This document shows positions 4,790-35,811 of a DNA stretch of 64,000 bases, in pieces. The translations under genes were made by a program, and so were the position numbers. Source of the DNA: Escherichia coli (GTDB lineage Bacteria; Pseudomonadota; Gammaproteobacteria; Enterobacterales; Enterobacteriaceae); the NCBI RefSeq assembly GCF_011045215.1, contig NZ_CP049201.1, one strand, 5' to 3'. The notes under the pieces are model-generated. The model was given only the letters and a program-made list of their open reading frames with translations, was not told where the DNA came from and made no database searches. Position 1 is the stretch's first letter, and every line of letters begins with the position of its first letter.

Positions 4790-4800
4790 GTTGTTTCTGG

Positions 4801-7426: not shown

Positions 7427-7517
7427 GAGATGATTCCTTATAAAAAGTAAATGAATGGAAGAATGCCTGGGGATTGGTACAGACGTGAGTCAGGGCTGCA
7501 CTTTCAGGGAAACAGCA

Positions 7518-9066: not shown

Positions 9067-9141
9067 GGTATTTACCTCTCTGAGTCATGACGATGACACT
9101 GACAAATCAGGTGATAAAACGTAAAAGGTGCAGAATACTCG

Positions 9142-11664: not shown

Positions 11665-11778
11665 TCCGTGATGAATATCATGTTATTGTTAATGCCAGCG
11701 AATGTGGCGTTGAATATCCGTTGCGCCGGTCCGGGTCCCGATCATGATGACCGGGACCACAGAGAGGCGATGGTTCTG

Positions 11779-14628: not shown

Positions 14629-14845
14629 CAGCTTTTCCTTACAGAGGGTGAATAAAAAAGCCGGTACCCACAAATGTGGATACCGGCAGGTACAAAACAG
14701 CATGGTCAGATAAAGTGGTTTTTCCCGGACATAAATGCTTCCCCTCTCTCATCCGCCAGAGAAGTATCAGTCCGTTGTGTGCAATTCCGTTCTGCATGAT
14801 GAAGAGATTCAGCTGCCTTTTCGCAGGCCATTAACCACTACAAAC

Positions 14846-14881
14846 GATCGATACTAACGATCGATACCTGTTTTATCGATC
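14846..14881 (-). promoter_or_regulatory. Three clustered GATC sites: agn43-type Dam/OxyR phase-variation switch
   Basis: aaacGATCGATactaacGATCGATacctgttttatcGATCGtttta about 220 bp upstream of the flu start; GATC at 14846, 14859, 14878. Confidence 0.75.
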
Positions 14882-14999
14882 GTTTTATTCTATTGATAGC
14901 AGGGCAGTCACGCAAGAGAAACAGGAGGGTATGAGGGGTTTGTATCATGTTTTCAGTTGGTTAACGCAATGTAATCAGGCATTTCCCCTGGCAGAGTGT

Positions 15000-15872
15000 T
15001 CAGAAGAAAATCCAGTTCCATACCGCACGGGCAACAGAGACCACCGTGTCACGAACAGCGCGCAGGGCCGTACGGACAACAGAGGCAACACAGACGCTCT
15101 CCGCTGTGTCAAATATCCGGTCCACCGCACCGGTAAACTGTTCACGGGCCTGAGAGCGGACAGATTCCGTGCGCAGCTCGTCCTGCAGTCGGGTCATCAG
15201 GGGACTGGCGGCATGGTCGGGAAGCGCTGTCATGAGCGCACTGACCAGCGTATCCAGTTCCCAGCCGGTGCGGGCCGATACGGCCACAACCGGATGTGCG
15301 GGCCGGAACAGACGGAATACCGCCTCCGTTTTTTCGCGAATGTTCCGTGCCTGTGCGGGAGAGGGCTGAATGCCGGCCATATCCCATTCATGGCAGGGCT
15401 CCGTTTTGTCGGCCTGCGTCACCACAAACAGCACCTGCTGATGTCCCCGGTGCAGGATGTGTCGCCAGAAATACTCATCCACAGACAAGGCACGGTCATC
15501 GGCTTTAATCAGCCACAGTACCAGGTCCAGTTCAGGCAGAATGTCACGGTACAGGGCTTCATACTCTGCATCCCTGTCCCGACTCTCGCCCACCCCGGGC
15601 AGGTCAGTAATAACCATGCTGTGACCGTGGCCACTCAGACGGAAGCGCCGCACTTCCCGGGTGCCGGCGTGAACATCACTGACCGGTGTGACCTCTCCCT
15701 GAAACAGGGCATTACAGAGTGAGGATTTACCGGCCCCGCTTTTCCCCATAATGCCAATCACGGGTTCGTGACTGGTGAGTTTGCGCAGATGTTCCAGGAT
15801 GTGACGGGAAAGTGAGTAAGGCAGGGAGGAGAGCGGTTTTTCAATTGCCTCAATGGCATCAGACGGATTCAT
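15000..15872 (-). CDS. YeeP/YkfA-family GTPase
   Basis: P-loop GIMGKSGAGKSS and G-domain motifs; 290 aa from MNPSDAIEAIEK...; upstream of the Ag43 gene as in CP4-44. Confidence 0.8.
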   Translation of the reverse strand: MNPSDAIEAIEKPLSSLPYSLSRHILEHLRKLTSHEPVIGIMGKSGAGKSSLCNALFQGEVTPVSDVHAGTREVRRFRLSGHGHSMVITDLPGVGESRDRDAEYEALYRDILPELDLVLWLIKADDRALSVDEYFWRHILHRGHQQVLFVVTQADKTEPCHEWDMAGIQPSPAQARNIREKTEAVFRLFRPAHPVVAVSARTGWELDTLVSALMTALPDHAASPLMTRLQDELRTESVRSQAREQFTGAVDRIFDTAESVCVASVVRTALRAVRDTVVSVARAVWNWIFF

Positions 15873-16087
15873 ACATGTATTCCCGGTGAAAAAAGACAAA
15901 ACCCCGCGCACCGGAAAAGTGGCGGGGGACTCACGGAGATAATATCTGCCTAAAATTATTTGGAATGCAGGTATATGCAGCTAATTTGTATCGGCTCATT
16001 AGTACAGAACTAAACCTCATCTGACAGTCCGCTCTGTGCCAAGAGCGGACTTTGCAAAATGGGGGTTATTTCAATCAAAACGTAACG

Positions 16088-17032
16088 TCACAACCAGCCG
16101 ACGCTCTCTCGCCATTTATAATTAGTAACTTTATCATTTTCGCTTATTTTTTTAGATATAGAGCGCGGCTCTCTTCCTAGATACTCAGATATTTCTATCG
16201 GGGACAAATCAAAATCGACAAGCATGACTCTAAGTTTTTCCATTTCCTTTAAAGTCCAAGGCTTGCCATAATTTTCATAAAGAGATACCTTATGCTCCCT
16301 GATAGTTCGCTTTCTCTGAGTTTCACTTTCCCTCTGAAAAATCTCGCTTTTAAATTGTGAACGGAACTCTTTACAGAAGTTGTTATCAGTTTTTTTGTTA
16401 TATAGATTGCTAAAAATAAGCTGGGATGCCGGGTCTAAATCAGGTGTGTTAATAATGAAAACTTTGACCTTTTCCATATAGGGATATTCAATTTTACCCA
16501 ATATGCTTAATTGCTTTATATTAAAAAAACCTCTCAAATCAAAAGATTTAATGAGCTTTGATTGGATTACACTTTCAATCCTGCTTGCATTTGAATAACA
16601 GTACTTTGCCATTGGAAGGGCCCATACTACCAGTTGAGGAATATATTTTTCTAATGCAATGCTCTGCCAATCAGTATCAAAGGTTTGGCTTTTTGCTAGC
16701 ATGTTTTTCGGCAAATCAGAATACATTGTGGTAGATGCCCATATCTTATAATCATTCGCCAAGGCTTGATAGTATTTTGTGTGGTTATGAATTTTATAAG
16801 CTGACATGAAGCGATAAACGTCTTCGTCGTGACCAGCGTCGTAAATTGTTCGATTTCCTCTAAGATAACCGTCGTAATGTTCGGTTATCCTTCTACCTAC
16901 ATTACAACTTACCCCAACGTAAACCACACGACTGAAAAGTCCTTTATGGACAATAAGATAAACTCCGCTACAGCCAGATTTCCTGGCCTCTGATAGAGAA
17001 CCTAAAAATCTCCATTCCATAATTAAATCCAT
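16088..17032 (-). CDS. GIY-YIG nuclease-domain protein, AT-rich, otherwise uncharacterised
   Basis: N-terminal GVYLIVHKGLFSRVVYVGVSCNVGRRITEHY resembles the GIY-YIG catalytic motif; low GC and Asn/Lys/Ile-rich; start uncertain (ATG at 17032 or 17020). Confidence 0.55.
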   Translation of the reverse strand: MDLIMEWRFLGSLSEARKSGCSGVYLIVHKGLFSRVVYVGVSCNVGRRITEHYDGYLRGNRTIYDAGHDEDVYRFMSAYKIHNHTKYYQALANDYKIWASTTMYSDLPKNMLAKSQTFDTDWQSIALEKYIPQLVVWALPMAKYCYSNASRIESVIQSKLIKSFDLRGFFNIKQLSILGKIEYPYMEKVKVFIINTPDLDPASQLIFSNLYNKKTDNNFCKEFRSQFKSEIFQRESETQRKRTIREHKVSLYENYGKPWTLKEMEKLRVMLVDFDLSPIEISEYLGREPRSISKKISENDKVTNYKWRESVGWL

Positions 17033-17494
17033 AATTATTGCTACTGTTTTTGTTTATCATTATTTTCGTGAAACTTCAACAATTTTATCCAAAAGCTAAG
17101 GGCAAAGACTTATATAATTATACTTGTCATCGTTAGCGATTATATAGAGTAGTGGCGCTGACCTGCTCCCTGGTGATTCACACAGAATGCTGTTAGTAAT
17201 GTCCGTTCCTCGCTCAAAGCAGACCATTCGCTCAGTTAACGCATCAGTGTCGTGCTAAAAGTAGACGTGGTTAACAACAATGTGAGTTAATCAACGGAGA
17301 GCAGGTCAACTCTAACCTGTATCAAAAAAACAAATGTGTCACAAAGATGCCGCATGCCTTAATTTGAGTATAATTGAGACGGAAGTAGACGGTTTATGGC
17401 TAAATATTGTTGATATATAGCTATTTGAAGAGTTGTAGCGCAAGTGTATAGCCCAAACTAATAACGCTACGCCCCTTACCTTTGACGCGTCTTA

Positions 17495-17803
17495 TCAAAG
17501 AGCGGCGATGATGCACAGCCCGCACGAGGCAATATTCGCACAAGAATCAGGTTCAGAAATAACCTGATCTGGCATGGTGGGGAGAGTATCACTGAGCAGG
17601 CTTTCGGTAAAATGCGGCGGGATGAGGTCGGCGTGGGTTGCAGCAGTACAATGTCGCCCGCAGAGGGTAAGCCACAGCGCGGGATCCTCGGTTTCTATCA
17701 GGGATTCGACGAAGTGGGCGCAGTTGTCGACCAAGGCGGTGAAATCCATAGTGACATTATAAGGAAACGAACAATAGATCGAGTAAATCGCAGTCAGGGA
17801 CAA
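17495..17803 (-). CDS. Hypothetical ORF (weak)
   Basis: 102-aa ORF in intergenic space; no recognisable motif. Confidence 0.2.
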   Translation of the reverse strand: MSLTAIYSIYCSFPYNVTMDFTALVDNCAHFVESLIETEDPALWLTLCGRHCTAATHADLIPPHFTESLLSDTLPTMPDQVISEPDSCANIASCGLCIIAAL

Positions 17804-18024
17804 GGATTGTAGTCATAGAGAAGTCTCCTGTAACGGTTTTCAGGAAGCTAATCCCGACGCCTGATTTTGCAGGCGCGGAAGGAGAAGATACTGCGGCCAT
17901 TAATCCGCCACAAGGCATTTACGTGCATAAATCGCGCAGTCAAATCCGACTCCCACTGTAGTTCTTGAACCTGATACCACATTTAGCTAATTTAGCTAAC
18001 TTATCTATTATACCAGTGGTTGCC

Positions 18025-18270
18025 ATGAATATGAATGAAGACGAGATTTATCGCCATATCCGGCAGGCACTTTCCAGTGCGCCTCGTAACCAGTACACCG
18101 TCGAGCTGCACCTGCAAATGATTAAATATGCCGACAAACTGGAACACATTACGGCAAAAGCCTTTTGCGAAGGCACTGGTCTGAACCAGAGCCTCGGTAC
18201 CGAATTCAGCAAAATGCGTAACTTAACCCATCGGTTAAAGGCCGCCGGTCTGAATACCGATCTGCTGTAA
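18025..18270 (+). CDS. Small hypothetical protein upstream of hsdM (81 aa from MNMNEDEIYRHIRQ...)
   Basis: Co-oriented ORF ending 40 nt before hsdM; function unknown. Confidence 0.4.
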   Translation: MNMNEDEIYRHIRQALSSAPRNQYTVELHLQMIKYADKLEHITAKAFCEGTGLNQSLGTEFSKMRNLTHRLKAAGLNTDLL

Positions 18271-18309
18271 CCGACTTACGGCACATTATCGCGCAAAACG
18301 AGATATTTA

Positions 18310-20748
18310 ATGGCTATCAAAAAAACCGAACTCTATTCTTCCCTGTGGGCAAGCTGCGACGAACTGCGTGGCGGGATGGACGCCAGCCAGTACAAAGACT
18401 ATGTACTGACCCTGCTGTTTATGAAGTACGTTTCCGATAAGTATAAAGGCGATCCTTACGGGATGATCGTGATACCCAAAGGAGCCAGCTTTGACGATAT
18501 GGTTGCGCTGAAAAATGACAAAGAGATCGGCGACAAAATCAACAAAATCATCCACAAGCTGGCGGAAGAGAACGGCCTGAAGGGCGTCATCGACGAAGCC
18601 GACTTTAACGACGAAGATAAGCTCGGCAAAGGCAAGGAAATGATTGACCGCCTGAGCAAGCTTGTCGGTATCTTTGAAGGGTTAAATCTCTCCAGCAACC
18701 GGGCCGAAGGCGACGATCTGCTGGGCGATGCCTATGAATATCTGATGCGTCACTTCGCAACCGAATCCGGTAAGAGTAAAGGGCAGTTTTACACTCCAGC
18801 GGAGGTGTCACGTATTCTGGCGAAGGTGATTGGTATTACTCCCGATACTCCGCAAGATGCAACGGTTTATGACCCAACCTGTGGCTCTGGTTCGCTGCTG
18901 TTGAAAGTGAATGATGAAGCCCGGCGCGGACTGTCGATTTTCGGCCAGGAGATGGATAACGCTACCAGTGCGCTGGCGCGGATGAACATGATTCTGCATA
19001 ACAATGCCACCGCGAAAATCTGGCAGGGCAATACGCTGAGCGATCCGCAGTGGAAAGAGGCGAACGGCAAACTGAAAGCCTTCGATTTTGCCGTGGCGAA
19101 CCCGCCTTTTTCCAATAAAAACTGGACCAACGGGCTGACGCCGAAAAAAGATCCGTTTGAACGCTTCGGCTGGGGTATTCCGCCGGAAAAAAACGGCGAT
19201 TATGCTTTTTTGTTGCATATCATTAAAAGCCTGAAAAGTACCGGCAAAGGCGCGGTGATCCTGCCCCACGGCGTACTGTTTCGCGGTAACGCCGAAGCGA
19301 ATATCCGTGAAAATCTAATCAAGCAGGGCTATATCAAAGGCGTTATTGGTTTGCCAGCCAACCTGTTTTACGGCACCGGCATCCCGGCGTGCATCATTGT
19401 GATTGATAAAGAGCACGCCCACAGCCGCAAAGGCATTTTTATGATCGACGCCAGCCGGGGCTTTATCAAAGATGGCAACAAGAACCGCCTGCGTAGCCGA
19501 GATATTCACCGCATTGTGGACGTGTTCAACCATCAGCGAACGGTACCTGGCTACAGCCGGATGGTGCCCTCCAGCGAGATCGCCGGAAATGATTACAACC
19601 TGAATATTCCTCGCTATATCGAGAGCGGCGAGCCGGAAGATTTACACGATCTGACCGCGCACTTACAGGGCGGTATTCCGGCACGCGATGTGGATGCTTT
19701 GCAAGATTACTGGCGGGTATTCCCTGCCCTGCGCAACGTGCTGTTTGCTGACGACCGTCCCGGTTACTGTCGGGCGCAGGTGAACGCGCAACAGGTGAAA
19801 CCGACCATTCTGGCGCATCAGGAGTTTAAGGATTTTGCCACCCGCAGCCTGCTACCGTTTAAAGCGTGGGTGAAAGAGGCAAGTCTGGAAGAGATTCGCA
19901 AAGGTGATAAACCCAAAGCGCTAATCCACGATATCAGCGAAATGCTATTGGCGCAGTACGCCAACAGTGAGTTGCTGAACAAATACAGCGTGTACCAGAT
20001 CCTGATGGATTACTGGACTGATGTCATGCAAGACGATGTGTATGCGATTATGCAGGATGGCTGGCAAGCCGCCGCGCAAATCCGCGAGCTTCAGCCGGTG
20101 AAAGGCAAAGATGGCAAAAACATCTGGAAAGAAACGCACGATTTCGAGTTTACCAAACGGCGCTACAAGGCCGATGTGCTGCCCCGTTCGCTGGTGGAAA
20201 TTCGCTGTTTCCCGGAACTGCTGGATGCGCTGAACCGCGCGCAGGAGCGCAGTGAAGAAGCCAGTCGTCAGCTAGTGGAATTCATCGAGGAGCAGGCAGG
20301 TGAAGAGGATCTGCTGGCCGAGGCGAAGAACGATAAAGATAAGGTGACGCAAAAGCTGGTGAATGCCCGTCTAGCACAGTTAAAGAAAACCACTGCCGGC
20401 CCAGATGAGCTGGCAGTGCTGAACCGCTGCCTGGCGCTAATTAAGGCCGAAGCCAGTGCGAAAAAAGCGCTGAAAGCCGCACAAGAAGCGCTGGATCGGG
20501 CGGTGTTTAAACATTATCCCACGCTGGATGAAGCAGCGATTAAAACGCTGGTAGTGCAGGATAAGTGGCTGGCAACGTTGCAGGCAGGGATCAAGGCGGA
20601 GATTGAGCGTATTACCCAGCAACTGGCGTCGCGCGTAAAGGAGCTGGAAGAGCGTTATGCTGAACCGTTGCTAGCGCTTGAAGCCTCCGTTGAGGCGTTG
20701 AGCGAGAAAGTGGCCGGGCATTTGCGGGCGATGGGGCTGGAGTGGTGA
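18310..20748 (+). CDS. hsdM: Type I restriction-modification methyltransferase subunit HsdM (long form, 812 aa)
   Basis: AdoMet motif DPTCGSGSLL and catalytic NPPF; long coiled-coil C-terminal extension; stop overlaps hsdS start. Confidence 0.9.
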   Translation: MAIKKTELYSSLWASCDELRGGMDASQYKDYVLTLLFMKYVSDKYKGDPYGMIVIPKGASFDDMVALKNDKEIGDKINKIIHKLAEENGLKGVIDEADFNDEDKLGKGKEMIDRLSKLVGIFEGLNLSSNRAEGDDLLGDAYEYLMRHFATESGKSKGQFYTPAEVSRILAKVIGITPDTPQDATVYDPTCGSGSLLLKVNDEARRGLSIFGQEMDNATSALARMNMILHNNATAKIWQGNTLSDPQWKEANGKLKAFDFAVANPPFSNKNWTNGLTPKKDPFERFGWGIPPEKNGDYAFLLHIIKSLKSTGKGAVILPHGVLFRGNAEANIRENLIKQGYIKGVIGLPANLFYGTGIPACIIVIDKEHAHSRKGIFMIDASRGFIKDGNKNRLRSRDIHRIVDVFNHQRTVPGYSRMVPSSEIAGNDYNLNIPRYIESGEPEDLHDLTAHLQGGIPARDVDALQDYWRVFPALRNVLFADDRPGYCRAQVNAQQVKPTILAHQEFKDFATRSLLPFKAWVKEASLEEIRKGDKPKALIHDISEMLLAQYANSELLNKYSVYQILMDYWTDVMQDDVYAIMQDGWQAAAQIRELQPVKGKDGKNIWKETHDFEFTKRRYKADVLPRSLVEIRCFPELLDALNRAQERSEEASRQLVEFIEEQAGEEDLLAEAKNDKDKVTQKLVNARLAQLKKTTAGPDELAVLNRCLALIKAEASAKKALKAAQEALDRAVFKHYPTLDEAAIKTLVVQDKWLATLQAGIKAEIERITQQLASRVKELEERYAEPLLALEASVEALSEKVAGHLRAMGLEW

Positions 20749-22088
20749 TGGTGGATTTAATGGTGAATGAGCAACGGTCGAGTACGGCGGGGAAAGATGT
20801 GCCTGCGGGGTATAAACTGACTGAGGTGGGCGTGATTCCTGAGGATTGGGATTGCGTACCATTTGGTAATCTGTTTAAAACAAACACAAAGAAAAAAAAA
20901 GTCAGCGATTATGAGCTAGTTTCATTTATTGGGATGCAGGATGTTAGTGAAGATGCACAATTAAAAAATAATACTCAACTTCCTTTTAAAGAAGTTAAAA
21001 GTGGTTTTACTTACTTTGAAAAAGGGGATGTTTTATTAGCTAAAATAACCCCTTGTTTTGAAAATGGAAAAGGATGTCATACCGCTGATTTACCTACTAA
21101 TGTAGGTTTTGGGAGTACGGAATTTCATGTATTAAGGGAAAATGAAGACTCCGATTCTCGCTTCATCTATTTTTGGACAACTGATAAAAAATTCAGAGCA
21201 TCACTGGAATCTGAAATGGTGGGAAGTGCGGGACACCGTCGTGTGCCGCTAGTTGCTATAGAAAAATATTTGATTCCATGTCCCCCAAATTTGCAAGAGC
21301 AAAGTGCTATTGCTGATTCATTATCTGATATTAATAATTTTATTCTAGCTCTAGAAAAGCTTATCGTTAAAAAACAAGCCATTAAAACCGCTACTATGCA
21401 GCAACTACTGACGGGTAAAACCCGTTTGCCACAGTTTGCGTTACGCAAAGATGGCTCTGCTAAGGGATATAAAAAGAGCGAGTTGGGGGCGATTCCTGAA
21501 GATTGGGTAGTCACAAGCATTGGACAATTTACTGACTGCTGTGCTGGTGGAACTCCGAGTACTAAAATTTCAGCATATTGGGGAGGAACTCATCCTTGGA
21601 TGAGTTCCGGCGAATTACACTTAAAACAAGTGTATGCTGTAGCCGATTATATAACCGACGAAGGGCTTGTTAACTCCAGTACAAAGTATGTGCCTAAAAA
21701 TTCTGTATTAGTCGGATTGGCAGGACAAGGAAAGACTCGAGGGACTGTAGCAATTAATCGCATTGAATTATGTACTAATCAGTCTATTGCTGCGATTTTC
21801 CCCAGCAAACATCATTCCACAGAATTCCTGTTCTATAACCTCGACAGTCGTTATGAGGAACTGAGAAGTTTATCTACTGGTGATGGGGGGCGTGGTGGGT
21901 TGAATCTTACTATTATCAGGAAATTACATCTTGCATTTCCGCCAAAAGAAGAACAAGCCGCCATCGCCGCCATCCTCTCCGATATGGACAAGGAAATCCA
22001 GATCCTGCAACAGCGTCTGGACAAAACCCGCCAGCTTAAGCAAGGGATGATGCAGGAACTGTTAACCGGGAAAATCCGCTTAATATAG
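20748..22088 (+). CDS. hsdS: Type I R-M specificity subunit HsdS
   Basis: Two target-recognition-domain architecture with conserved central and C-terminal repeats (LLTGKTRLP / LLTGKIRL); ATG overlaps hsdM TGA (ATGA). Confidence 0.85.
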   Translation: MVDLMVNEQRSSTAGKDVPAGYKLTEVGVIPEDWDCVPFGNLFKTNTKKKKVSDYELVSFIGMQDVSEDAQLKNNTQLPFKEVKSGFTYFEKGDVLLAKITPCFENGKGCHTADLPTNVGFGSTEFHVLRENEDSDSRFIYFWTTDKKFRASLESEMVGSAGHRRVPLVAIEKYLIPCPPNLQEQSAIADSLSDINNFILALEKLIVKKQAIKTATMQQLLTGKTRLPQFALRKDGSAKGYKKSELGAIPEDWVVTSIGQFTDCCAGGTPSTKISAYWGGTHPWMSSGELHLKQVYAVADYITDEGLVNSSTKYVPKNSVLVGLAGQGKTRGTVAINRIELCTNQSIAAIFPSKHHSTEFLFYNLDSRYEELRSLSTGDGGRGGLNLTIIRKLHLAFPPKEEQAAIAAILSDMDKEIQILQQRLDKTRQLKQGMMQELLTGKIRLI

Positions 22089-22100
22089 AAGGGAAAGCAC

Positions 22101-22757
22101 ATGGCTTATGATTACAGCGCCAGCCTCAACCCGCAAAAAGCTCTGATCTGGCGTATCGTCCATCGGGACAATATCCCGTGGATTCTGGATAACGGGCTGC
22201 ACTGCGGCAACAGTCTGGTGCAGGCGGAAAACTGGATCAATATCGGCAACCCGGAGCTGATCGGCAAGCGTGCCGGGCATCCGGTACCTGTCGGAACGGG
22301 CGGGACACTGCATGACTATGTGCCGTTTTATTTTACCCCCTTCTCGCCAATGCTGATGAACATCCACAGCGGGCGCGGCGGCATTAAGCAACGCCCCAAT
22401 GAGGAGATCGTTATTCTGGTCAGCAACTTGCGGAACGTGGCAGCACACGACGTGCCCTTCGTGTTTACCGACAGCCATGCTTACTATAACTGGACCAACT
22501 ACTACACCAGTCTGAATAGTCTGGACCAGATCGACTGGCCCATTTTGCAGGCACGGGACTTTCGCCGCGATCCAGACGATCCGGCTAAATTTGAACGCTA
22601 TCAGGCAGAGGCGCTAATCTGGCAACACTGCCCGATCTCTCTGCTGGATGGGATAATTTGTTACAGCGAAGAGGTCAGGTTACAATTAGAGCAATGGCTG
22701 TTTCAGCGTAATCTAACAATGTCCGTTCACACACGGGCTGGATGGTACTTCTCATGA
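22101..22757 (+). CDS. darT: DarT-like DNA ADP-ribosyltransferase toxin (DUF4433)
   Basis: 218-aa ORF immediately followed by a macrodomain gene with overlapping stop/start; family call from recalled DUF4433 features. Confidence 0.7.
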
Positions 22758-23821
22758 TCACATATACACAAGGCAATTTACTGGACGCACCGGTGGAAGC
22801 TCTGGTGAATACGGTTAATACCGTCGGTGTCATGGGGAAAGGCATCGCGTTGATGTTTAAAGAGCGCTTCCCCGAAAATATGAAAGTCTATGCCCTCGCT
22901 TGCAAACAAAAGCAGGTGATCACCGGCAAAATGTTCATTACCGAAACCGGGGAACTGATGGGACCGCGCTGGATTGTTAATTTTCCGACCAAACAGCACT
23001 GGCGCGCTGATTCCCGCATGGAGTGGATTGAAGATGGCTTGCAGGACTTACGCCGCTTTTTGATTGAAGAGAACGTGCAGTCCATCGCCATTCCACCACT
23101 GGGCGCAGGCAACGGTGGTTTGAACTGGCCGGACGTTCGGGCGCAGATTGAATCTGCCCTTGGCGACCTTCAGGACGTTGATATCCTGATTTACCAACCG
23201 ACTGAAAAATACCAGAACGTTGCCAAAAGCACTGGCGTAAAAAAGCTCACTCCCGCCAGAGCCGCCATCGCTGAACTGGTGCGTCGCTACTGGGTATTGG
23301 GGATGGAGTGCAGCCTACTGGAAATCCAGAAACTGGCCTGGCTGTTACAACGCGCCATTGAGCAGCATCAACAGGACGATATCCTCAAACTGCGGTTTGA
23401 AGCTCACTATTATGGCCCCTATGCGCCCAATCTGAACCATCTGCTTAATGCGCTGGACGGCACCTATCTAAAAGCCGAGAAACGCATCCCGGACAGCCAA
23501 CCGCTGGATGTGATCTGGTTTAACGATCAAAAAAAAGAACACGTTAATGCGTATCTGAACAACGAAGCCAGAGAGTGGCTACCTGCGCTGGAGCAGGTCA
23601 GCCAGTTAATTGACGGCTTTGAATCGCCGTTTGGTCTGGAGTTGCTGGCAACCGTAGACTGGTTGCTGAGCCGTGGCGAATGTCAACCAACGCTGGATTC
23701 CGTTAAGGAAGGACTGCACCAGTGGCCTGCGGGCGAACGCTGGGCCAGCCGTAAGTTGAGGCTGTTTGATAATAATAATCTGCAATTTGCCATTAACCGC
23801 GTAATGGAGTTCCATTGCTGA
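22754..23821 (+). CDS. darG: DarG-like macrodomain antitoxin
   Basis: N-terminal macrodomain signature ([36 protein letters not shown]) plus C-terminal extension; ATG overlaps darT TGA; alternative in-frame ATG at 22742. Confidence 0.75.
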
Positions 23822-23839
23822 GGGTTTAAGGAGCGCCTT

Positions 23840-26800
23840 TTGAGTACCGTGGGCCAGCGCGAACGCGCCACACAGCAGCGTCTGATTCAGTTTTTTGTTG
23901 AAGATTTAGGATACCGCCATCTGAGTCACCGCACCGGGTACACCGGGAACAGCAACATCGACACTAATATACTGAGCGCGTGGCTAAAACGGCGCGGCGT
24001 TAATGATACGTTGATCACCCGGGCGTTGCGGCAACTGGATTCCGCCGCCGCCCTGGGCGAAGGCAAAAAACTCTATTACGCCAATAAAGAGGTCTATCGC
24101 CTGCTGCGTTACGGCGTGAAAGACAAAGAAGGTGCAGGCGAGCAGAACCAAACCGTGTGGCTGATTGACTGGGCCAACCCACAAGCCAATGATTTCGCCA
24201 TCGCCGATGAGGTGACGGTCAAAGGCGAGTACTGCAAGCGCCCGGATCTGGTGCTGTACGTTAACGGCATTGCGCTGGGCGTGATTGAACTTAAGCGTTC
24301 GTCAGTGCACGTCAGCGAAGGTATCCGGCAGAATCTCGATAATCAAAAGAAAACCTTTATCCGCGATTTCTTCACCACTATGCAGTTAGTGATGGCAGGC
24401 AACGATACGCAGGGCCTGCGCTACGGCACCATCGAAACCCCGGAAAAATACTATCTGGAGTGGAAAGAAGATAATCCAGGCGACTATACACATAAACTCG
24501 ACTTTCATTTAAGTCGTCTGTGTAGCAAATCCAGGCTGTTGGATATCGTCCATAATTACATTGTCTTTGATGTCGGGGTGAAAAAACTCTGCCGCCATAA
24601 TCAGTTCTTCGGCGTCGAGGCGGCTAAGCAACATATTGCCCGTCGTGAAGGCGGTATTATCTGGCACACACAGGGATCGGGTAAAAGCCTGACGATGGTC
24701 TGGCTGGCGAAGTGGATCCGTGAAAATGTGCCAAACTCCCGCGTGTTGATTGTGACTGACCGCACCGAACTGGATGAACAGATCGAAAGCGTGTTTATGG
24801 GCGTGAATGAAGATATTTATCGCACCTCCAGCGGCAACGATCTTATCGCAACGCTCAATCATCCTAACCCGTGGCTTATTTGCTCGCTGGTGCATAAATT
24901 TGGTTGTCGCAGCGAAGCTGAAGACAATGCGGCTACCGACGCCTTTATCACCGAATTACAGCAGTCCCTGACGAAAACATTCCGCGCCAAAGGCGATCTG
25001 TTTGTTTTTGTGGACGAGTGCCACCGCACACAATCCGGCAAGCTGCATAACGCCATGACTGCCATTCTGCCGGACGCCCTGTTTATCGGTTTTACCGGCA
25101 CACCGCTGATGAAGAAAGATAAGAAGAAGTCGGTTGAGGTGTTCGGCCCTTATATCCATACCTATAAATTTGATGAAGCGGTGGCCGACGGTGTGGTGCT
25201 GGATCTGCGCTACGAGGCGCGCGATATTGACCAGTATCTGACATCAGAGAAAAAGGTCGATGACTGGTTTGAAGCCAAGACTCGCGGTTTGTCGAATTTA
25301 GCCAGGACCCAGCTTAAGCAAAAGTGGGGATCAATGCAGAAGCTGCTCTCCAGCAAGTCGCGGCTGGAGCAGATCGTTAACGACATTTTGCTGGATATGG
25401 ATACCCGTCCACGCCTGATGGACGGGCGCGGCAACGCCATGCTGGTATGCAGCAGTATCTATCAAGCCTGCAAGGTTTACGAGATGTTCAGCCAGACCGA
25501 GCTGGCAGGAAAAGTAGCGATTGTGACCAGCTATCGCCCCGATGCCGCCAGCATCAAAGGCGAAGAAACGGGCGAAGGGTTAACGGAGAAACTCTCTAAA
25601 CACGCCACCTATCGTAAAATGTTGGCTGACTATTTTGAACAAAGTGAAGAGAAGGCCGCCGCACGCATTACCGAGTTCGAGCGGGAAGTGAAACAACGTT
25701 TTATTGAAGAGCCGGGGCAAATGCGCCTGCTTATCGTGGTGGACAAGCTGTTGACTGGCTTTGACGCGCCGTCCGCCACCTATCTCTACATTGATAAAAC
25801 CATGACCGACCATACGCTGTTTCAGGCGATTTGTCGGGTGAACCGGCTGGACGGTGAGGATAAAGAGTATGGCTATATTATCGATTATAAAGATCTGTTC
25901 CGTTCGCTGGATAAAGCGATTACCGATTACACCACGGGCGCGTTTGATGATTACGATCGGGACGATGTGGCCGGGTTGCTGAAAGACAGGCTGGAGCAGG
26001 CGCAACTGGATCTCGACAGCGCGCTGGAGATGGTTCGCAGCTTATGTGAGCCCGTCAAAACCCCGCGCAGCCTGCAGGACTATCAGCACTATTTTTGCGG
26101 TAAATCAGGAGAGAATCAGACTTCGTTAAACGAAAAAGAGGCGCTGCGCCTGACATTTTACCAGTGCGTCGCCCGTCTGCTACGCGCTTATGCCAGCATC
26201 GCCAATGAAATGCCGGAAGCAGGCTACACTGCCGAAGAGGTAGAGAGCATTCGCGCCGAAGTCGCTGAATTCGAAAAACTGCGCTATGAGATTAAGCTGA
26301 CCAGCGGCGATCTTCTGGATATGAAGCGCTTTGAACCCGCTATGCGTCATTTACTGGATATGTATGTTCGCGCCGATGGTAGCGAAGTGCTGATGGATTT
26401 TGAAGAGTTAAGTCTGATTGAACTGATTGTCGAGAAAGGCTTGGCGGCGACCGTCGCCCTGCCGGATGATATCCGTAATAATCAGGATGCGATGGCGGAA
26501 ACCATCGAAAACAACGTGCGCAAAACCATCGTGGATGAAAACCCGGTTAACCCAAAATACTATGGACGCATGTCGCAGCTGCTGGATGAACTGATTACCC
26601 TTCGCCGACAAAATGCGCTCAATTATCAGCAGTATCTGGAACGTATCCGCGATTTGTGTAAACAGGTCATCCGCCCGGAGCAAACCGCCGGAGCGTGCTA
26701 CCCTGCCACCATGGATACACAAGCAAAGCGCGCCTTCTATGACAACTTCGGCCACGACGAGGTACTGGCGACCCGCATAGATACGACAATTCGCTATACC

Positions 26801-26935
26801 AAAAGGGCAGAGTGGATTGGCGATCGTTTTAAAGAACGGGAAATTGCCAACGCATTACGTGAAGAGACCGCCAGCTATAATATTGATATTGATGAGGTGA
26901 TAGCGCTTGCCCGTCAGCAGAAGGAATATCACTGA
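23840..26935 (+). CDS. hsdR: Type I restriction endonuclease subunit HsdR (1031 aa)
   Basis: SF2 helicase motifs (HTQGSGKSLTM Walker A, VFVDECHR DEAH-box); TTG start 7 nt after AAGGAG. Confidence 0.9.
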   Translation: MSTVGQRERATQQRLIQFFVEDLGYRHLSHRTGYTGNSNIDTNILSAWLKRRGVNDTLITRALRQLDSAAALGEGKKLYYANKEVYRLLRYGVKDKEGAGEQNQTVWLIDWANPQANDFAIADEVTVKGEYCKRPDLVLYVNGIALGVIELKRSSVHVSEGIRQNLDNQKKTFIRDFFTTMQLVMAGNDTQGLRYGTIETPEKYYLEWKEDNPGDYTHKLDFHLSRLCSKSRLLDIVHNYIVFDVGVKKLCRHNQFFGVEAAKQHIARREGGIIWHTQGSGKSLTMVWLAKWIRENVPNSRVLIVTDRTELDEQIESVFMGVNEDIYRTSSGNDLIATLNHPNPWLICSLVHKFGCRSEAEDNAATDAFITELQQSLTKTFRAKGDLFVFVDECHRTQSGKLHNAMTAILPDALFIGFTGTPLMKKDKKKSVEVFGPYIHTYKFDEAVADGVVLDLRYEARDIDQYLTSEKKVDDWFEAKTRGLSNLARTQLKQKWGSMQKLLSSKSRLEQIVNDILLDMDTRPRLMDGRGNAMLVCSSIYQACKVYEMFSQTELAGKVAIVTSYRPDAASIKGEETGEGLTEKLSKHATYRKMLADYFEQSEEKAAARITEFEREVKQRFIEEPGQMRLLIVVDKLLTGFDAPSATYLYIDKTMTDHTLFQAICRVNRLDGEDKEYGYIIDYKDLFRSLDKAITDYTTGAFDDYDRDDVAGLLKDRLEQAQLDLDSALEMVRSLCEPVKTPRSLQDYQHYFCGKSGENQTSLNEKEALRLTFYQCVARLLRAYASIANEMPEAGYTAEEVESIRAEVAEFEKLRYEIKLTSGDLLDMKRFEPAMRHLLDMYVRADGSEVLMDFEELSLIELIVEKGLAATVALPDDIRNNQDAMAETIENNVRKTIVDENPVNPKYYGRMSQLLDELITLRRQNALNYQQYLERIRDLCKQVIRPEQTAGACYPATMDTQAKRAFYDNFGHDEVLATRIDTTIRYTKRAEWIGDRFKEREIANALREETASYNIDIDEVIALARQQKEYH

Positions 26936-27651
26936 TGCCAATCATGCAAATAGGCTCGTTACACTTGCTGGTCAACCGTAAGGCGATTAAGAATCTGCAT
27001 ATCAGCGTGCTGCCGCCTGATGGCAAAGTCCGCGTTTCAGCGCCGGAACATATGACGGAGACGGCGATTCGTATGGCGGTTGCTTCACGCTTTCGCTGGA
27101 TCAGAAAACAGCAGCAGGATTTCGCCAGACAGCCTCGTCAATCAGAGAGGGAAATGGTCAGCGGAGAGTGCCACTATCTTTGGGGCCGAAGATATCGCCT
27201 ACTTGTGATTGAGCGTCACGGGCGTCACGAAGTAAAAGTTGCGGGAAATAATAAGCTCCAGCTTTATGTTCAACCGGGAACCCGTGATGAAAATAAGGCA
27301 TTGGCGTTAAGTGAATTTTATCGACATGAACTAAAACAGCAGGTGGCTAAGCTTCTACCTGAATGGCAAGACCGAATCGGTGTTCCCCTAACATTCTGGG
27401 GCATCAAAAAGATGAAAACCTTTTGGGGCACCTGTAACACTACAACAAAACGAATCTGGCTCAATCTGGAGCTAATTAAGAAGCCGCCGGAGTGTCTGGA
27501 GTATATTCTGGTGCATGAACTGGTTCATCTTCTGGAACGTCACCATAATGCTCGCTTCCGGTTGCATATGGATCGGTTTATTCCTGACTGGCGTGAGCGT
27601 CGGGATTTGTTAAATAATATGCCGTTAGCGTTTGAGGCATGGGAGTATTGA
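26935..27651 (+). CDS. M48/DUF45 (YgjP-like) zinc metallopeptidase-fold protein
   Basis: HEXXH motif (HELVHLLERHH); ATG overlaps hsdR stop. Confidence 0.75.
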   Translation: MPIMQIGSLHLLVNRKAIKNLHISVLPPDGKVRVSAPEHMTETAIRMAVASRFRWIRKQQQDFARQPRQSEREMVSGECHYLWGRRYRLLVIERHGRHEVKVAGNNKLQLYVQPGTRDENKALALSEFYRHELKQQVAKLLPEWQDRIGVPLTFWGIKKMKTFWGTCNTTTKRIWLNLELIKKPPECLEYILVHELVHLLERHHNARFRLHMDRFIPDWRERRDLLNNMPLAFEAWEY

Positions 27652-27907
27652 TTGAGCCTGTAACTGTTTTTTGTCCATAAATTAACCTTCATTTGATGCT
27701 GGATAGAACATATCAAAATCAGACAATTACACAAATCTATGTACAGGCTCAACTCCTGCCATGGAACGTAGTACTCACCAATAAGTAAGCATCAATACGG
27801 CGCTCCGTTAACGCTTACTAGCATGGTTATCTCCTTAAAAAATTGAGGCGACAACTATGCTGACACAGGGGGTTACTCACCGATCTCCTTCACGGTAATA
27901 CGCAGTT

Positions 27908-28024
27908 CTTCAGAACCCGCCTCCGATACCAGCCTGGCGGTCGCCCCGGCGCAAGCAAAATAAATCGACCATTGTCAGACTGCGATCGTTCGGATGCCCC
28001 GCCACCGACGCATCAGTATGAGTT
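27908..28024. repeat. Direct repeat copy A (~117 bp), partner at 36875..37003
   Basis: cttcagaacccgcctccgataccagcctggcg...gcaagcaaaataaatc.accattgtcagactgcgatc shared with copy B at ~88% identity by eye. Confidence 0.7.
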
Positions 28025-28258
28025 AACCGAAACGATACAAAATTGCCTGAGAATCATTACGCTGGCTGATGGAAGGCACACCAAAAGCCTCTGCACAGAA
28101 CGATGTTCGGCAACAACAGAAACATGATTGCGTTCATGGCAATAGTCATTCGTACCGTTACAGGCGGTATTGATTTATTACAGACAAGCGGTACATATAT
28201 GTACCGCTTGGTTAAGTAAAAAAACAGATATGAACGCTATTATGTTCATTCTACTTTA

Positions 28259-28816
28259 TTAAAAGCGATAACCCACGCCAATATTGAATCCATTAATGGA
28301 ATAATTATCGCCAAGTTTTGCTCTGGTTCCTTCATATCCGGCATTAATTGTAATATTACTTGTCGGATTGATCATTACCCCGGCAGCATAAGCAAAAGAT
28401 GTGGATTTTTTCGAAATATTTTCTCTGGCGAAATAACCATCAACGTTTGTCCATGCTGTTTTACCATCAGCTTTAACATGCGCCACGCCGCCAGCCGCAT
28501 ACAGTGACATATAATCGTTAATGCGCCATACGGGGCCGGTCAGTAAGGAATAATATTTTGCATCAACCTGGTTTTTAATTGAATCGCCATATGAATGATA
28601 TTCCTGATTACCATCCCCTTTCATCCAGGAGAAACTGCCCATAATACTGACCGGGGAGTCCCATTCATACCTGTACTGCAGGTTTACCCCTCTAATATTC
28701 TTGAAGTTCTGAATTTTACTCTGTGCATAACCGACAGAAAACGAATGGTTGTCAGCCAGCACGGAACCGCTTGCCACTGATAATATGATGGCTGAAAGAA
28801 CTGACAGTTTTTTCAT
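28259..28816 (-). CDS. Ail/Lom/OmpX-family outer-membrane beta-barrel protein
   Basis: Signal peptide MKKLSVLSAIILSVASGSVLA, alternating amphipathic strands, C-terminal ...NIGVGYRF aromatic terminus. Confidence 0.8.
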   Translation of the reverse strand: MKKLSVLSAIILSVASGSVLADNHSFSVGYAQSKIQNFKNIRGVNLQYRYEWDSPVSIMGSFSWMKGDGNQEYHSYGDSIKNQVDAKYYSLLTGPVWRINDYMSLYAAGGVAHVKADGKTAWTNVDGYFARENISKKSTSFAYAAGVMINPTSNITINAGYEGTRAKLGDNYSINGFNIGVGYRF

Positions 28817-29081: not shown

Positions 29082-29315
29082 TCAGAACCCCTTAACTTTC
29101 ATGATATGCAACAAACCAATACCCAAGCCTAAGATCCCCCCCCCATACACACTCATTTTTAACAGTCTAGAAAACTGAAAAACTTCAAATGATATTGGGG
29201 CATTCAAATAAAAATACATAAATATCTTCAGAAGAAGATAAAAAATCGAACCGACTATAAACAAACCAAATATGCATACAGTCATTAATAAGACAACAAT
29301 AAGAAGGTTCTTCAT
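29082..29315 (-). CDS. Orphan CdiI-like immunity protein (77 aa, two predicted TM helices)
   Basis: Small hydrophobic ORF overlapping the stop of the orphan cdiA-CT by 4 nt. Confidence 0.6.
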
Positions 29316-30343
29316 TTCCCAGCCTCCATTGCATCTTTCTTTTTCTGGATAATGGAGCTTCCAAACTCAGATGATAAACTACCACCCGCATTACCCACAG
29401 CACCAGGGATCTTACTCGGTACCATTTCTTTAGATAGACCTAACTGCCCTTTAACTTCAGTATATTTTAGTAGAGTCGGATCGAATTTAGGATTCCAGCC
29501 ACCGGTTATCCATTTACCGATTGTATTTGCAGCAGGCTTGACCACATAATTGCCAACCCCATATCCAAACCCGGCCCCCGCTCCATTTGTAATCGCCCCA
29601 GTAAGAGGATCATCTCCGTTTATGGCGTTGGTTAATGCTCCACCTGCCGCATTCCAGGCTATTGTCCCTTTCCAGCCCTGCCCCATGGTGATTACATTGA
29701 CCCATCCTGCAATGATTGCATTTTCAGGATCAACTGAACTATCTACCATGTAACCAATTCCTGCATTTGCACCTGTGCCAAGAGCCCACATGGCCTGAGC
29801 ACCGCCAGGTAAGAGAGCTACACTACCAGTGGCCAACGCTCCGGCATACGCTTTATTGACTGCTTCTCCTCGCTTACAGGCTTCACCGCCTGGGGCATCG
29901 TTACAGGAAAGTACATCTGCGCCATGCGTCTGAGCAGCTTTGCTCTGCTCGGACTCTGTGCCACCAACCAAGTTATTCTCAGCAATGTTCTTCCCAACAC
30001 CAGCCCCTGCAGCCGCGCCAGCCACATCGCCACTGGCAATGCCGCCAGCCATACCCGCTGACAGCGTTGCCAGCGTGCTTATCGTCTGCTTCTGCTCTTC
30101 ACTGAGGTCTGACTGTTTCACGCCCGGATACAGCATTCCGATCGCTCTGGCTGCCAGCTCTCCCGTTGCTGCGCCTGCTGCACCAGCAGCAACATTATTA
30201 CTCTGCATTGCCGCTACTGCACCGCCCAGAATGGCGTGAGCAATGGCCTTTACTGCCGGGTCTTTTTCTGTTGATTTCAGCAGGTATGCCAGTTCCGGAG
30301 CCGAAGCTCCCGCCAGTACTGCACCAACGTCACCACCTGCCAG
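29312..30343 (-). pseudogene. Orphan cdiA-CT fragment (pretoxin/VENN-like region plus glycine-rich C-terminal toxin domain), 5'-truncated
   Basis: Translation upstream of the annotated ATG continues as ...[53 protein letters not shown]..., homologous to the CdiA 37491..46565 pretoxin region ([13 protein letters not shown]...VENN); preceded by an in-frame stop at 30344. Confidence 0.75.
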
Positions 30344-31048: not shown

Positions 31049-32269
31049 ATGGAAAAGCATTACGTCGGTTCTGAAATTGGTCAATTGCGTAGTGTTATGC
31101 TGCACCGCCCAAATTTAAGTCTGAAACGTTTGACACCATCGAATTGTCAGGAACTGCTTTTCGATGATGTACTCTCGGTTGAACGGGCAGGTGAAGAGCA
31201 TGACATCTTCGCAAATACGCTGCGCGATCAGGGGGTGGAAGTCCTGCTGTTAACAGACCTCCTGACACAAACCCTTGATATTAAAGAAGCGAAAACCTGG
31301 CTACTGGAGACGCAAATTTCTGACTACCGCCTCGGACCTACCTTTGCGGGCGATGTGCGCAGCTGGCTGGCGGACATGCCGCACCGTGAACTGGCGCGAA
31401 GATTAAGCGGCGGATTAACTTACGGTGAAATTCCGGCTGCCATTAACAATATGGTGGTGGATACCCACACGTCTAATGACTTTATTATGAAGCCGCTACC
31501 GAATCATTTATTTACCCGCGATACCTCCTGCTGGATTTATAACGGTGTTTCTATTAACCCGATGGCCAAACCAGCCCGTCAACGTGAAACCAATAACCTC
31601 CGGGCAATATATCGCTGGCACCCGGCATTTGCCGACGGCGATTTTATTAAGTATTTCGGCGACGAAAATATTTATTACGACCACGCCACTTTGGAAGGTG
31701 GCGACGTATTAGTGATTGGTCGTGGGGCGGTATTGATCGGCATGTCTGAACGCACAACACCGCAGGGCGTGGAGTTCCTCGCCAACAGCCTGTTCAAACA
31801 TCGTCAGGCCGAGCGAGTGATCGCCGTTGAGCTGCCAAAACACCGCTCCTGTATGCACCTTGACACCGTCATGACCCACATCGACGTTGACACTTTCTCC
31901 GTTTACCCGGAAGTGGTGCGCAAAGACGCCCAGTGCTGGACGCTCACTTCGAACGGACGCGATGGCCTACAACGGACCCAGGAAACCGACCTGTTGCACG
32001 CCATCGAGAAAGCACTCGGTATTGACCAGGTACGCTTGATCACCACCGGCGGCGACGCCTTTGAAGCCGAACGTGAGCAGTGGAACGACGCCAATAACGT
32101 TCTGACCATCCGCCCCGGTGTGGTGATTGGTTACGAGCGCAACGTCTGGACTAACGAGAAATACGACAAAGCCGGCATCACCGTGCTGCCCATCCCGGGG
32201 GACGAATTGGGACGAGGCCGCGGCGGCGCACGCTGCATGAGCTGTCCGCTTGAACGCGACGGAATTTAA
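31049..32269 (+). CDS. arcA: Arginine deiminase
   Basis: 406-aa [31 protein letters not shown]... typical ADI N-terminus; RBS aaaggaataattATG. Confidence 0.9.
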
Positions 32270-32279
32270 AGGAGCCATC

Positions 32280-33191: not shown

Positions 33192-33275
33192 ATCCCCCTT
33201 CACCTAACCCTCTCCTCAAAGGGGAGATGGCAGAGTGAGGGCATCAGACAGTTAAAATTTAAAAAGGATTTCCTA

Positions 33276-34280: not shown

Positions 34281-34327
34281 TCACCACCCGGTGCGTCGTA
34301 GGGTGCACCGGGTCTCAGGAGAACATC

Positions 34328-35731: not shown

Positions 35732-35811
35732 TTTGCCGGATGGCGCTGCCCCTATCCGGTCTACGGAATGGTGTGGTGTCACCGGTTATTTCGAGAACTG
35801 AATATAGGATT

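Follow-up and report, generated by a model that had tools for sequence, protein, structure and literature searches.

The locus around hsdM in the window (the whole 64,000-nucleotide stretch of Escherichia coli DNA that was analyzed) is, judged from its genes and their order, an intact RRDM allele; this seven-gene island has been published, and the arrangement is therefore already known. RRDM stands for RptR-RMS-DarTG2-M48, and the island was described in enteropathogenic E. coli (EPEC) O127:H6 E2348/69 (NC_011601, 1150268..1159908; Zhang et al., Nucleic Acids Res 2025, PMC12255303); the placement of darTG inside type I restriction-modification (R-M) operons had been noted already in the first description of the toxin-antitoxin system (Jankevicius 2016, PMC5179494). 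Genes, order, strand and junction overlaps are all alike in the window and in EPEC, and apart from HsdS the proteins are 97-100% identical. The gene order, rptR-hsdM-hsdS-darT-darG-hsdR-M48, matches the island definition, with rptR first and at least two putative RptR sites in the promoter. The surroundings differ, since the window locus occupies a tRNA-Ser island whose flanking genes are intact, whereas the EPEC copy has IS elements around it; this tRNA-Ser island also carries IS remnants. We assign a probability of about 0.88 to the overall model, in which this RRDM allele places two layers of defense under one regulator.

A sequence-only reading had proposed the order hsdM-hsdS-darT-darG-hsdR-peptidase in a single direction, and the ORF list and our reading of the sequence agree with it: six listed ORFs, each where it had been placed, run co-directionally on the + strand from hsdM at 18310 to the end of the peptidase gene at 27651. 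The three stop/start overlaps likewise lie precisely at the positions given there, yet darT/darG is the sole ATGA (22754..22757, overlap 4 nt); the hsdM/hsdS (20746..20750) and hsdR/peptidase (26933..26937) junctions both read TGATG, with an overlap of 1 nt. Overlaps of 1 and 4 nt are the commonest classes in bacteria and are ordinary for operons. The spacers are 12 nt between hsdS and darT and 18 nt between darG and hsdR, and range from -4 to +39 nt across the seven-gene island. None of the seven ORFs is truncated, and their catalytic motifs are intact, including DarT E170, DarG K80 and the peptidase HELVH. HsdM, DarT, DarG and HsdR score 262.9-546.4 bits against curated NCBIfam cut-offs of 150-284.55, far beyond chance for an ORF, while HsdS was identified with PADLOC and the peptidase with Pfam.

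The type I R-M assignments were upheld by NCBIfam and PADLOC, the locus encoding an HsdM methyltransferase, an HsdS with two target-recognition domains (TRDs) and an HsdR with nuclease and SF2 translocase. The hsdM gene (18310..20748, + strand) encodes a type I N6-adenine DNA methyltransferase of 812 aa that matches TIGR00497 at 282.8 bits (cut-off 242.75) and PADLOC MTase_I over its full length at 1425.6 bits, shows the motifs DPTCGSG and NPPF, and is identical to EPEC HsdM at 794 of 812 residues. Pfam HsdM_N and N6_Mtase (E 2.2e-103) span residues 10-441 only and PDB relatives span only residues 1-453, so that neither Pfam nor PDB recognizes a domain in the C-terminal ~370 aa. The specificity subunit, hsdS (20748..22088, + strand), comprises 446 aa counted from the ATG at 20748, although the mechanical ORF opens at a GTG at 20742, and matches PADLOC Specificity_I at 424.7 bits over residues 7-445. 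Alignment resolves two variable blocks, the TRDs, between conserved blocks and reveals a hybrid, with TRD1 as in strain LSU61 and TRD2 as in EPEC; because TRD1 differs from that of EPEC, a different HsdS recognition sequence is predicted. No complete E. coli genome covers at least 80% of this HsdS, and the exact protein is present on 20 public contigs. The restriction endonuclease/translocase gene, hsdR (23840..26935, + strand; 1031 aa), starts at a TTG preceded by AAGGAG, a start identical to that of PGAP. Its product scores 546.4 bits with TIGR00348 (cut-off 284.55) and 1631.3 bits with PADLOC REase_I, is identical to EPEC HsdR at 1027 of 1031 residues, and shows motifs of a nuclease (PD..ELK) and of a helicase (DECH); in the Pectobacterium orthologue, HSDR_N, ResIII and SWI2_SNF2 domains are present.

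Between hsdS and hsdR lie the genes of a DarTG2 pair. The first, darT (22101..22757, + strand), encodes a predicted ssDNA thymidine ADP-ribosyltransferase toxin of 218 aa, which had been recognized from DUF4433 features and its macrodomain partner and which indeed matches Pfam DarT (PF14487, formerly DUF4433) across all 201 model positions (E 2.6e-53), NCBIfam toxin_DarT (NF048013) at 262.9 bits (cut-off 150) and PADLOC DarT at 247.6 bits. It is identical to EPEC DarT at 216 of 218 residues, the differences being Q97R and A213S. In the alignment, residue E170, in YQAEAL, falls on the catalytic glutamate of the ART fold that is mutated in the Thermus DarT structure 7OMV (E160A), and E170 and G49 coincide with the published mutant positions E170A, which is inactive in EPEC DarT, and G49D (PMC7003065). 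EPEC DarT ADP-ribosylates thymidine in ssDNA and stalls replication; it prefers TTT/TCT, not TNTC, and both its toxicity and the rescue by DarG were demonstrated outside the island (PMC7003065).

The second gene, darG (22754..23821, + strand), encodes a predicted DNA ADP-ribosyl glycohydrolase antitoxin of 355 aa; the length of 359 aa given earlier results from counting from an in-frame ATG further upstream, at 22742, and T. aquaticus DarG is homologous from the Met of 22754 onward. The expected macrodomain was recovered with Pfam Macro (E 4.5e-21), NCBIfam antitoxin_DarG (NF048014) matches at 451.2 bits (cut-off 250), and the protein is identical to EPEC DarG (DARG_ECO27) at 355 of 355 residues. 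With these profile matches for both proteins, the DarTG call withstands the check that the earlier reading had proposed for it. DarG consists of an N-terminal macrodomain (not NADAR), as in the DarTG2 subfamily, which matches 5M31 with E 4.2e-55, and a C-terminal DarT-binding domain, with residues 183-351 matching the M. tuberculosis DarG chain 7YK3_B of a DarT-DarG complex (E 5.4e-13); Pfam adds a weak SocA_Panacea match. The catalytic Lys is K80, in FPTKQHW, which is K54 in older numbering, and in EPEC the macrodomain reverses the modification while the C-terminal domain sequesters DarT by binding it (PMC7003065).

The last gene of the block (26935..27651, + strand) encodes a zinc metallopeptidase of 238 aa, identical throughout to the EPEC protein (238/238), with an HExxH motif, HELVH, at residues 194-198. 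The name "M48 peptidase" is a PGAP product name, and the Pfam family is YgjP-like (DUF45; PF01863, E 1.6e-61), with a further SprT-like match at E 4.3e-06. Membership in Peptidase_M48 (PF01435) was rejected (E 0.1, 12.8 bits), and NCBIfam, PADLOC, PHROG and PDB returned no match for this protein.

The seventh gene of the island and the first in order, rptR (18031..18270, + strand), was absent from the earlier account together with its promoter and operator. It encodes a transcriptional repressor of 79 aa that is identical to EPEC RptR at 76 of 79 residues and matches the RptR crystal structure 9R2Z (E 5.7e-47); RptR of strain LSU61 is identical to that of the window and is named "HTH-like domain-containing protein" by PGAP, and the Pectobacterium orthologue matches Pfam HTH_73. 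Reading of the sequence and alignment to the EPEC promoter place a putative promoter and RptR operator at 17965..18008 (+ strand), with a -35 box TTGAAC at 17965..17970 and operator repeats spanning 17982..18008. Two 9-bp direct repeats TTTAGCTAA occupy 17982..17999, with TAGCTA at 17984 and 17993, and are followed by CTTATCTAT, with TATCTA at 18002..18007, all three in a 9-bp register. The -35 box and the TTTAGCTAA repeat sequence are common to the window and EPEC, whereas the EPEC operator has three canonical TTTAGCTAA repeats and that of the window two canonical repeats and one TATCTA variant, which is among the RptR-binding variants expected for EPEC (PMC12255303). Experiments on EPEC established that the promoter is active and that RptR binds TAGCTA: a sigma-70 promoter lies upstream of rptR, RptR dimers repress it from TAGCTA repeats spaced by 9 bp and overlapping the -10 box, and hsdM transcripts rise >15-fold after phage infection (PMC12255303).

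With spacers of -4 to +39 nt, neither promoters nor terminators would fit between the genes, so that the rptR promoter probably drives all seven as a single unit that extends through the peptidase gene. We infer translational coupling from the overlaps only; ribosomes finishing hsdM, darT and hsdR would go on to translate hsdS, darG and the peptidase gene, and the darT/darG overlap would tie synthesis of the antitoxin to that of the toxin. Such coupling may be dispensable, given the plausible individual Shine-Dalgarno sequences of hsdS, darT, hsdR and the peptidase gene. The TTG start may keep initiation of HsdR low. An unlikely, though reasonable, alternative to one transcription unit is that internal promoters in upstream coding sequence drive darTG and/or hsdR, making the locus several abutting units. 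A consensus scan found promoter-like sites inside darT (a weak + strand site, 22658..22686) and inside hsdR (24165..24193), stand-alone darTG cassettes elsewhere must have a promoter of their own, and the wording "native promoter(s)" is used for EPEC (PMC12255303). However, the promoter-like matches total 10 against a shuffle expectation of 13.4, and so neither support nor exclude internal promoters; the hsdS-darT spacer is just 12 nt, the scan found no promoter-like site in the 3' part of hsdS, and no junction carries a terminator-like site.

The description of the region as a composite defense locus finds support in experiments on the 97-100% identical EPEC island, which, carried whole in pBR322, cut the plating of 5 of 27 phages by ~3 to >7 orders of magnitude, a protection measured for R-M, DarTG and peptidase together (PMC12255303). 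On the model of two layers under one regulator, type I restriction would form the first line, by sequence-specific cleavage of unmodified DNA, and DarTG2 a second, abortive-type layer.

The whole island is found in 246 of 5,426 complete E. coli genomes, where it coincides with darTG of this type (n = 248) and with this hsdS family (n = 248). A copy in Pectobacterium shares all seven genes and, at ~15% DNA divergence, retains the three overlaps, which are also kept in EPEC E2348/69; its identity to the window is a uniform ~85% at the nucleotide level over hsdM, darT, darG, hsdR and the peptidase gene, suggesting that the block travels as a unit. Outside this block, diverged plasmid darTG loci stand alone in five of six cases (Zymomonas, Moraxella, Sulfitobacter, Burkholderia and Bacillus), with darG directly after darT at junctions of -1 to +14 nt and DarT 34-65% identical to that of the window; hsd genes do not flank these loci, so DarTG can do without an R-M context. 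The sixth, on Meiothermus taiwanensis plasmid pMtWR-220 (locus L012), is nested as here, with co-directional darT-darG directly after hsdS and before hsdR, although its DarT is only 29% identical to that of the window, its hsdS/darT and darT/darG junctions lack stop/start overlaps, and it carries extra cargo (DUF262 between hsdM and hsdS, an AAA ATPase and DUF4276 between darG and hsdR); no YgjP-like gene was found in the stretch examined. DarTG2 of Thermus aquaticus/Thermus sp. and of M. tuberculosis (Rv0059-Rv0060) likewise has the toxin before the antitoxin and shares the DarT fold with catalytic Glu, the macrodomain antitoxin with catalytic Lys and the C-terminal toxin-binding domain, the Thermus DarT being distant in sequence from that of the window (E 2.9e-26).

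The components might do more than share regulation: DarTG could serve as a backup when anti-restriction proteins block the type I enzyme, or the island could be turned on or off by the YgjP-like peptidase through cleavage of RptR or of stalled HsdR. We regard such functional cross-talk as doubtful. YgjP-like genes follow hsdR also in systems without rptR, which counts against it, as do the five of six diverged plasmid loci that lack R-M neighbors and so show DarTG working alone, and the EPEC toxicity and rescue seen outside the island (PMC7003065). Co-inheritance of the seven-gene block with uniform divergence, the coincidence of darTG with this hsd family in E. coli, the overlap of hsdR stop and peptidase start in three lineages and the weak SprT-like similarity of the peptidase speak for it, together with proteolysis or sequestration via some further factor as the authors' probable route of RptR de-repression (PMC12255303) and the crosstalk between methylation and ADP-ribosylation raised by Jankevicius et al. 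(PMC5179494).

It is more improbable still that DarTG here serves mainly as an addiction module, keeping the genomic island or restriction operon stable, instead of acting in phage defense. This alternative was put forward by Jankevicius et al. (PMC5179494) and suits the mobile, IS-rich or integrase-flanked island context, but the whole EPEC island is protective (PMC12255303), and stabilizing and defense roles are compatible. A decayed, non-functional remnant, as IS remnants in the surrounding island might suggest, is effectively refuted by the sequence, with its seven full-length ORFs, intact motifs and, apart from hsdS, 97-100% identity to functional EPEC genes.

We therefore retain the reading as an RRDM allele with two regulated layers. 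DarTG would be a self-sufficient cassette, and not a subunit of the restriction enzyme, placed at an hsdS|hsdR junction that may be a recurrent site for cargo. Relative to the EPEC island, the peculiarities of the copy in the window appear minor: a hybrid HsdS, the operator repeats and 18 residues of HsdM.

Translation of the window yields six large, co-directional open reading frames, and the coordinates that the sequence-only reading had assigned to them prove exact in every case: hsdM (18310..20748, +; 812 aa), hsdS (20748..22088, +; 446 aa), darT (22101..22757, +; 218 aa), darG (22754..23821, +; 355 aa), hsdR (23840..26935, +; 1031 aa, from a TTG start) and a peptidase gene (26935..27651, +; 238 aa). 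All six listed genes are present; what had been overlooked is rptR (18031..18270, +; 79 aa), which lies 39 nt upstream of hsdM and whose product matches the RptR crystal structure 9R2Z (E = 5.7e-47), together with its operator. Base-by-base reading of the junctions reveals that the ATGA overlap, originally proposed at three of them, occurs only at darT/darG (22754..22757, 4 bases); hsdM/hsdS (20746..20750) and hsdR/peptidase (26933..26937) are instead TGATG junctions with 1-base overlaps, in which the hsdS start sits on the hsdM stop codon and the peptidase start on the hsdR stop codon. The hsdS-darT and darG-hsdR spacers are 12 and 18 nt, respectively. The length of 359 aa first given for the darG product would require initiation at another ATG, at 22742, while initiation at 22754 yields 355 aa. 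We do not prefer the upstream start, since the alignment of the macrodomain with Thermus aquaticus DarG (5M31, E = 4.2e-55) sets in at its first residue, the Met encoded at 22754, the 355-aa form is used both by PGAP and by the Pectobacterium gene calls, and the corresponding Pectobacterium codon is GTG.

The assignment of the toxin, first based on DUF4433 features and the macrodomain partner, and that of the antitoxin are borne out by profile searches, and the outcome named beforehand as refuting them, a missing DUF4433 or macrodomain match, did not occur. For the 218-aa protein, the match to Pfam DarT (PF14487, formerly DUF4433) runs end to end (E = 2.6e-53), and the score against the NCBIfam equivalog toxin_DarT is 262.9 bits (cut-off 150); the 355-aa protein matches Pfam Macro (E = 4.5e-21) and scores 451.2 bits against antitoxin_DarG (cut-off 250), and PADLOC agrees with both calls. 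DarT aligns to Thermus DarT (7OMV, E = 2.9e-26), with E170 opposite the mutated catalytic position. DarG has K80 as its catalytic lysine, and its residues 183-351 align (E = 5.4e-13) to M. tuberculosis DarG as solved in complex with DarT (7YK3). Residues corresponding to the published mutants DarT G49D and E170A and DarG K54A (K80 in the 355-aa numbering) are all present in the window, and this positional match confirms the darT start at 22101. In the E. coli O157:H7 LSU61 locus (L001, 10138..10752), PGAP annotates a 204-aa DarT from a later start, compared with 218 aa in the window and in enteropathogenic E. coli (EPEC); the published numbering (G49, E170) agrees with the 218-aa form. EPEC DarT ADP-ribosylates thymidine in single-stranded DNA at TTT/TCT and stalls replication, and EPEC DarG counters it by glycohydrolase activity and sequestration (PMC7003065); these properties most likely extend, by analogy, to the near-identical genes of the window.

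HsdM and HsdR score above the curated NCBIfam cut-offs and also match full-length PADLOC models. The PDB relatives of HsdM all stop near residue 450 of 812, and residues ~445-812 (~19640..20745, the C-terminal ~370) have neither a Pfam domain nor a PDB relative; the existence of a full-length PADLOC MTase_I model indicates that the long HsdM represents a recurrent subfamily. HsdS was placed by PADLOC Specificity_I (424.7 bits), its sole NCBIfam match (34.4 bits) falling far under the model cut-off of 662. Its combination of target-recognition domains (TRDs), at ≥80% coverage, is absent from 5,426 complete E. coli genomes, an absence that at first raised the suspicion of a novel TRD. We dropped this idea because alignment reveals a recombinant of two known domains, TRD1 being shared with many strains, O157:H7 LSU61 among them, and TRD2 with EPEC E2348/69, and because the exact HsdS protein occurs on 20 public contigs. 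The hybrid thus looks like classic TRD reassortment, which predicts that it recognizes a new, hybrid sequence.

The last gene had been labeled an M48 peptidase, a label that does not hold at the domain level: Pfam Peptidase_M48 is matched only at E = 0.1, and "M48 family metallopeptidase" is the PGAP product name. Pfam identifies the protein as YgjP-like (DUF45, PF01863, E = 1.6e-61), with weak SprT-like/WLM similarity and a HELVH motif. This placement comes from Pfam only, since searches of NCBIfam, PADLOC, PHROGs and PDB sequences returned zero matches.

We compared the locus gene by gene with that of EPEC E2348/69 (NC_011601, 1150268..1159908), whose RRDM island comprises seven ORFs (RptR-RMS-DarTG-M48) with DarTG2 between hsdS and hsdR (PMC12255303). 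DarG (355/355) and the peptidase (238/238) are identical, and DarT (216/218), HsdR (1027/1031), HsdM (794/812) and RptR (76/79) nearly so; HsdS matches at 318 of 446 residues, with one recognition domain differing. When carried in pBR322, the whole EPEC island lowers the plating of five phages by ~3 to >7 orders of magnitude (PMC12255303). The view of the locus as a composite defence system is therefore upheld by published whole-island phage protection for near-identical genes, and by analogy with the EPEC copy, from which the experimental validation comes, the locus is a genuine anti-phage island with two layers of defence.

The control region differs in detail from that of EPEC. A -35 box, TTGAAC (17965..17970, +), stands in front of rptR, followed by an RptR operator (17982..18008) that consists of two 9-bp direct repeats of TTTAGCTAA (17982..17999, +) and a third unit, CTTATCTAT, which contains TATCTA (18002..18007, +) and keeps the 9-bp register. 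EPEC instead has three copies of TTTAGCTAA followed by CTTATCCAT, the unit after the three canonical repeats being TATCCA, which is non-binding; the Pectobacterium promoter has its own arrangement of TAGCTA, TAGCCA and TAGCTA. In EPEC, RptR represses the promoter via TAGCTA repeats overlapping the -10 box, just two repeats are needed for repression, RptR is expected to bind certain variants, TATCTA being one of them, and hsdM mRNA rises >15-fold upon infection (PMC12255303).

The seven genes are separated by -4 to +39 nt, and a consensus scan of 17400..28300 found no terminator-like site in any junction; on these grounds the seven genes probably share one transcript. Rfam, run over the entire window, placed no RNA family inside the locus. 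Internal promoters might still drive part of the locus, as weak consensus matches lie within darT and hsdR; however, promoter-like matches in the same scan (10 vs. 13.4, observed vs. shuffle expectation) are no more numerous than expected from shuffling, and terminator-like ones (16 vs. 12.5) lie at about the shuffle level, so that the scan speaks neither for nor against internal promoters or an operon terminator. Within the probable single transcript, the weak ribosome-binding sequence upstream of darG, together with the ATGA overlap, suggests that DarG synthesis is coupled to DarT translation, which would tie the antitoxin to its toxin. The hsdR gene has a strong AAGGAG, yet a TTG start.

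Among 5,426 complete E. coli genomes, darTG of the window type and the hsdS family of the window each occur in 248, and at least 80% of the whole island is found in 246, where PGAP places DarT/DarG within a type I system. The coincidence of these counts indicates that this darTG in E. coli is essentially always in the RRDM context. All seven genes are also found on a Pectobacterium carotovorum chromosome, flanked by two integrase genes, with uniform identity to the window of ~85% at the nucleotide level and 88-92% at the amino acid level (hsdM, darT, darG, hsdR and peptidase); only hsdS has diverged beyond that level. The three junctions (TGATG, ATGA and TGATG) are as in the window, and these overlaps are thus kept across ~15% DNA divergence. 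The uniform identity indicates that the composite moves and evolves as one block. Within E. coli, the block (18000..27800) is 99.5-99.6% identical to copies in other genomes, whereas the flanks, including the upstream 18 kb (1..18000), are ~95% identical to their best matches, a difference consistent with recent horizontal exchange of the defence block. Six distant plasmid darTG loci, with DarT 29-65% identical, were also compared; five stand alone, and one is nested as hsdS-darTG-hsdR with other cargo. The nested locus, on Meiothermus taiwanensis plasmid pMtWR-220 (L012, 775..12632; DarT 29% identical), reads hsdM, DUF262, hsdS, darT, darG, AAA ATPase, DUF4276 and hsdR; here, in another phylum, the type I operon serves as a carrier of several cargoes. 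The stand-alone loci and the Meiothermus nesting together argue that DarTG is an autonomous cassette for which the hsdS/hsdR junction is a recurrent landing site, as Zhang et al. likewise conclude (PMC12255303).

The RRDM island lies within a tRNA-Ser(GGA)-associated genomic island adjoining ghrA, which also has a CbtA/YeeU pair, an antirestriction gene and Ag43. The upstream 18 kb takes in csgG to ghrA, tRNA-Ser and a CP4-like island in which these genes are accompanied by YeeR. An IS102 RNA match (Rfam, 74 bits; 14647..14883, -) is directly upstream of the Ag43-like gene. Directly upstream of RRDM is a 314-aa gene (16088..17032, -; GC 0.37), named "GIY-YIG nuclease family protein" in LSU61 and without an NCBIfam or PADLOC match; several E. 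coli genomes have it next to RRDM, whereas EPEC and Pectobacterium do not. Downstream of the island are an Ail/OmpX-like outer-membrane protein gene (28259..28816, -), a possible orphan toxin fragment (29312..30208) and an arginine deiminase operon (31049..36291, +) with arcA, arcC, ornithine carbamoyltransferase, YfcC-like and ArgR-like genes. Judging by the PGAP names of E. coli matches (filamentous hemagglutinin, ShlB/FhaC family), a 3024-aa hemagglutinin-repeat protein (37491..46565, -) and the neighbouring 579-aa ORF (47118..48857, -) resemble a locus for two-partner secretion or contact-dependent inhibition. A low-GC (0.33-0.46) integrative element (49000..62000) carries integrase (60731..61933, -), DUF3987 helicase-like (55241..56692, -) and phrog_25019 (52663..53166, -) genes, and a 605-aa ORF (58726..60543, +) for which Pfam (up to E = 10), NCBIfam, PADLOC and PHROGs all returned nothing; this ORF may represent orphan cargo, carried by an element of satellite type. 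An STnc490 match (Rfam, 146 bits; 62691..62814, -) lies beside an IS200-family transposase gene.

The initial description of DarTG in 2016 (PMC5179494) already remarked on its nesting in type I operons, as did a 2021 review (PMC8385414), the EPEC proteins were characterized in 2020 (PMC7003065), and the exact seven-gene island with its promoter and repressor was described in 2025 (PMC12255303); the window locus is therefore a system already known in detail, with nothing new in kind. The only mildly novel possibility is cross-talk among the components, particularly via the YgjP-like peptidase; its start codon and the hsdR stop overlap in the window, EPEC and Pectobacterium alike. This peptidase might be the missing factor by which RptR is eliminated upon infection, or might clear stalled HsdR; DarTG2, in turn, could serve as a backstop that fires once the type I enzyme is neutralized. 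We consider it unlikely that the nesting is functional beyond regulation in either or both of these ways. A literature search on DUF45/YgjP/COG1451 with type I restriction found nothing useful. If such cross-talk were true, the seven genes would constitute one integrated sensing defence machine, as opposed to two systems with a common promoter. As it stands, the window presents a natural variant of the island, in which the HsdS domains are combined in a new way and the set of operator repeats differs.
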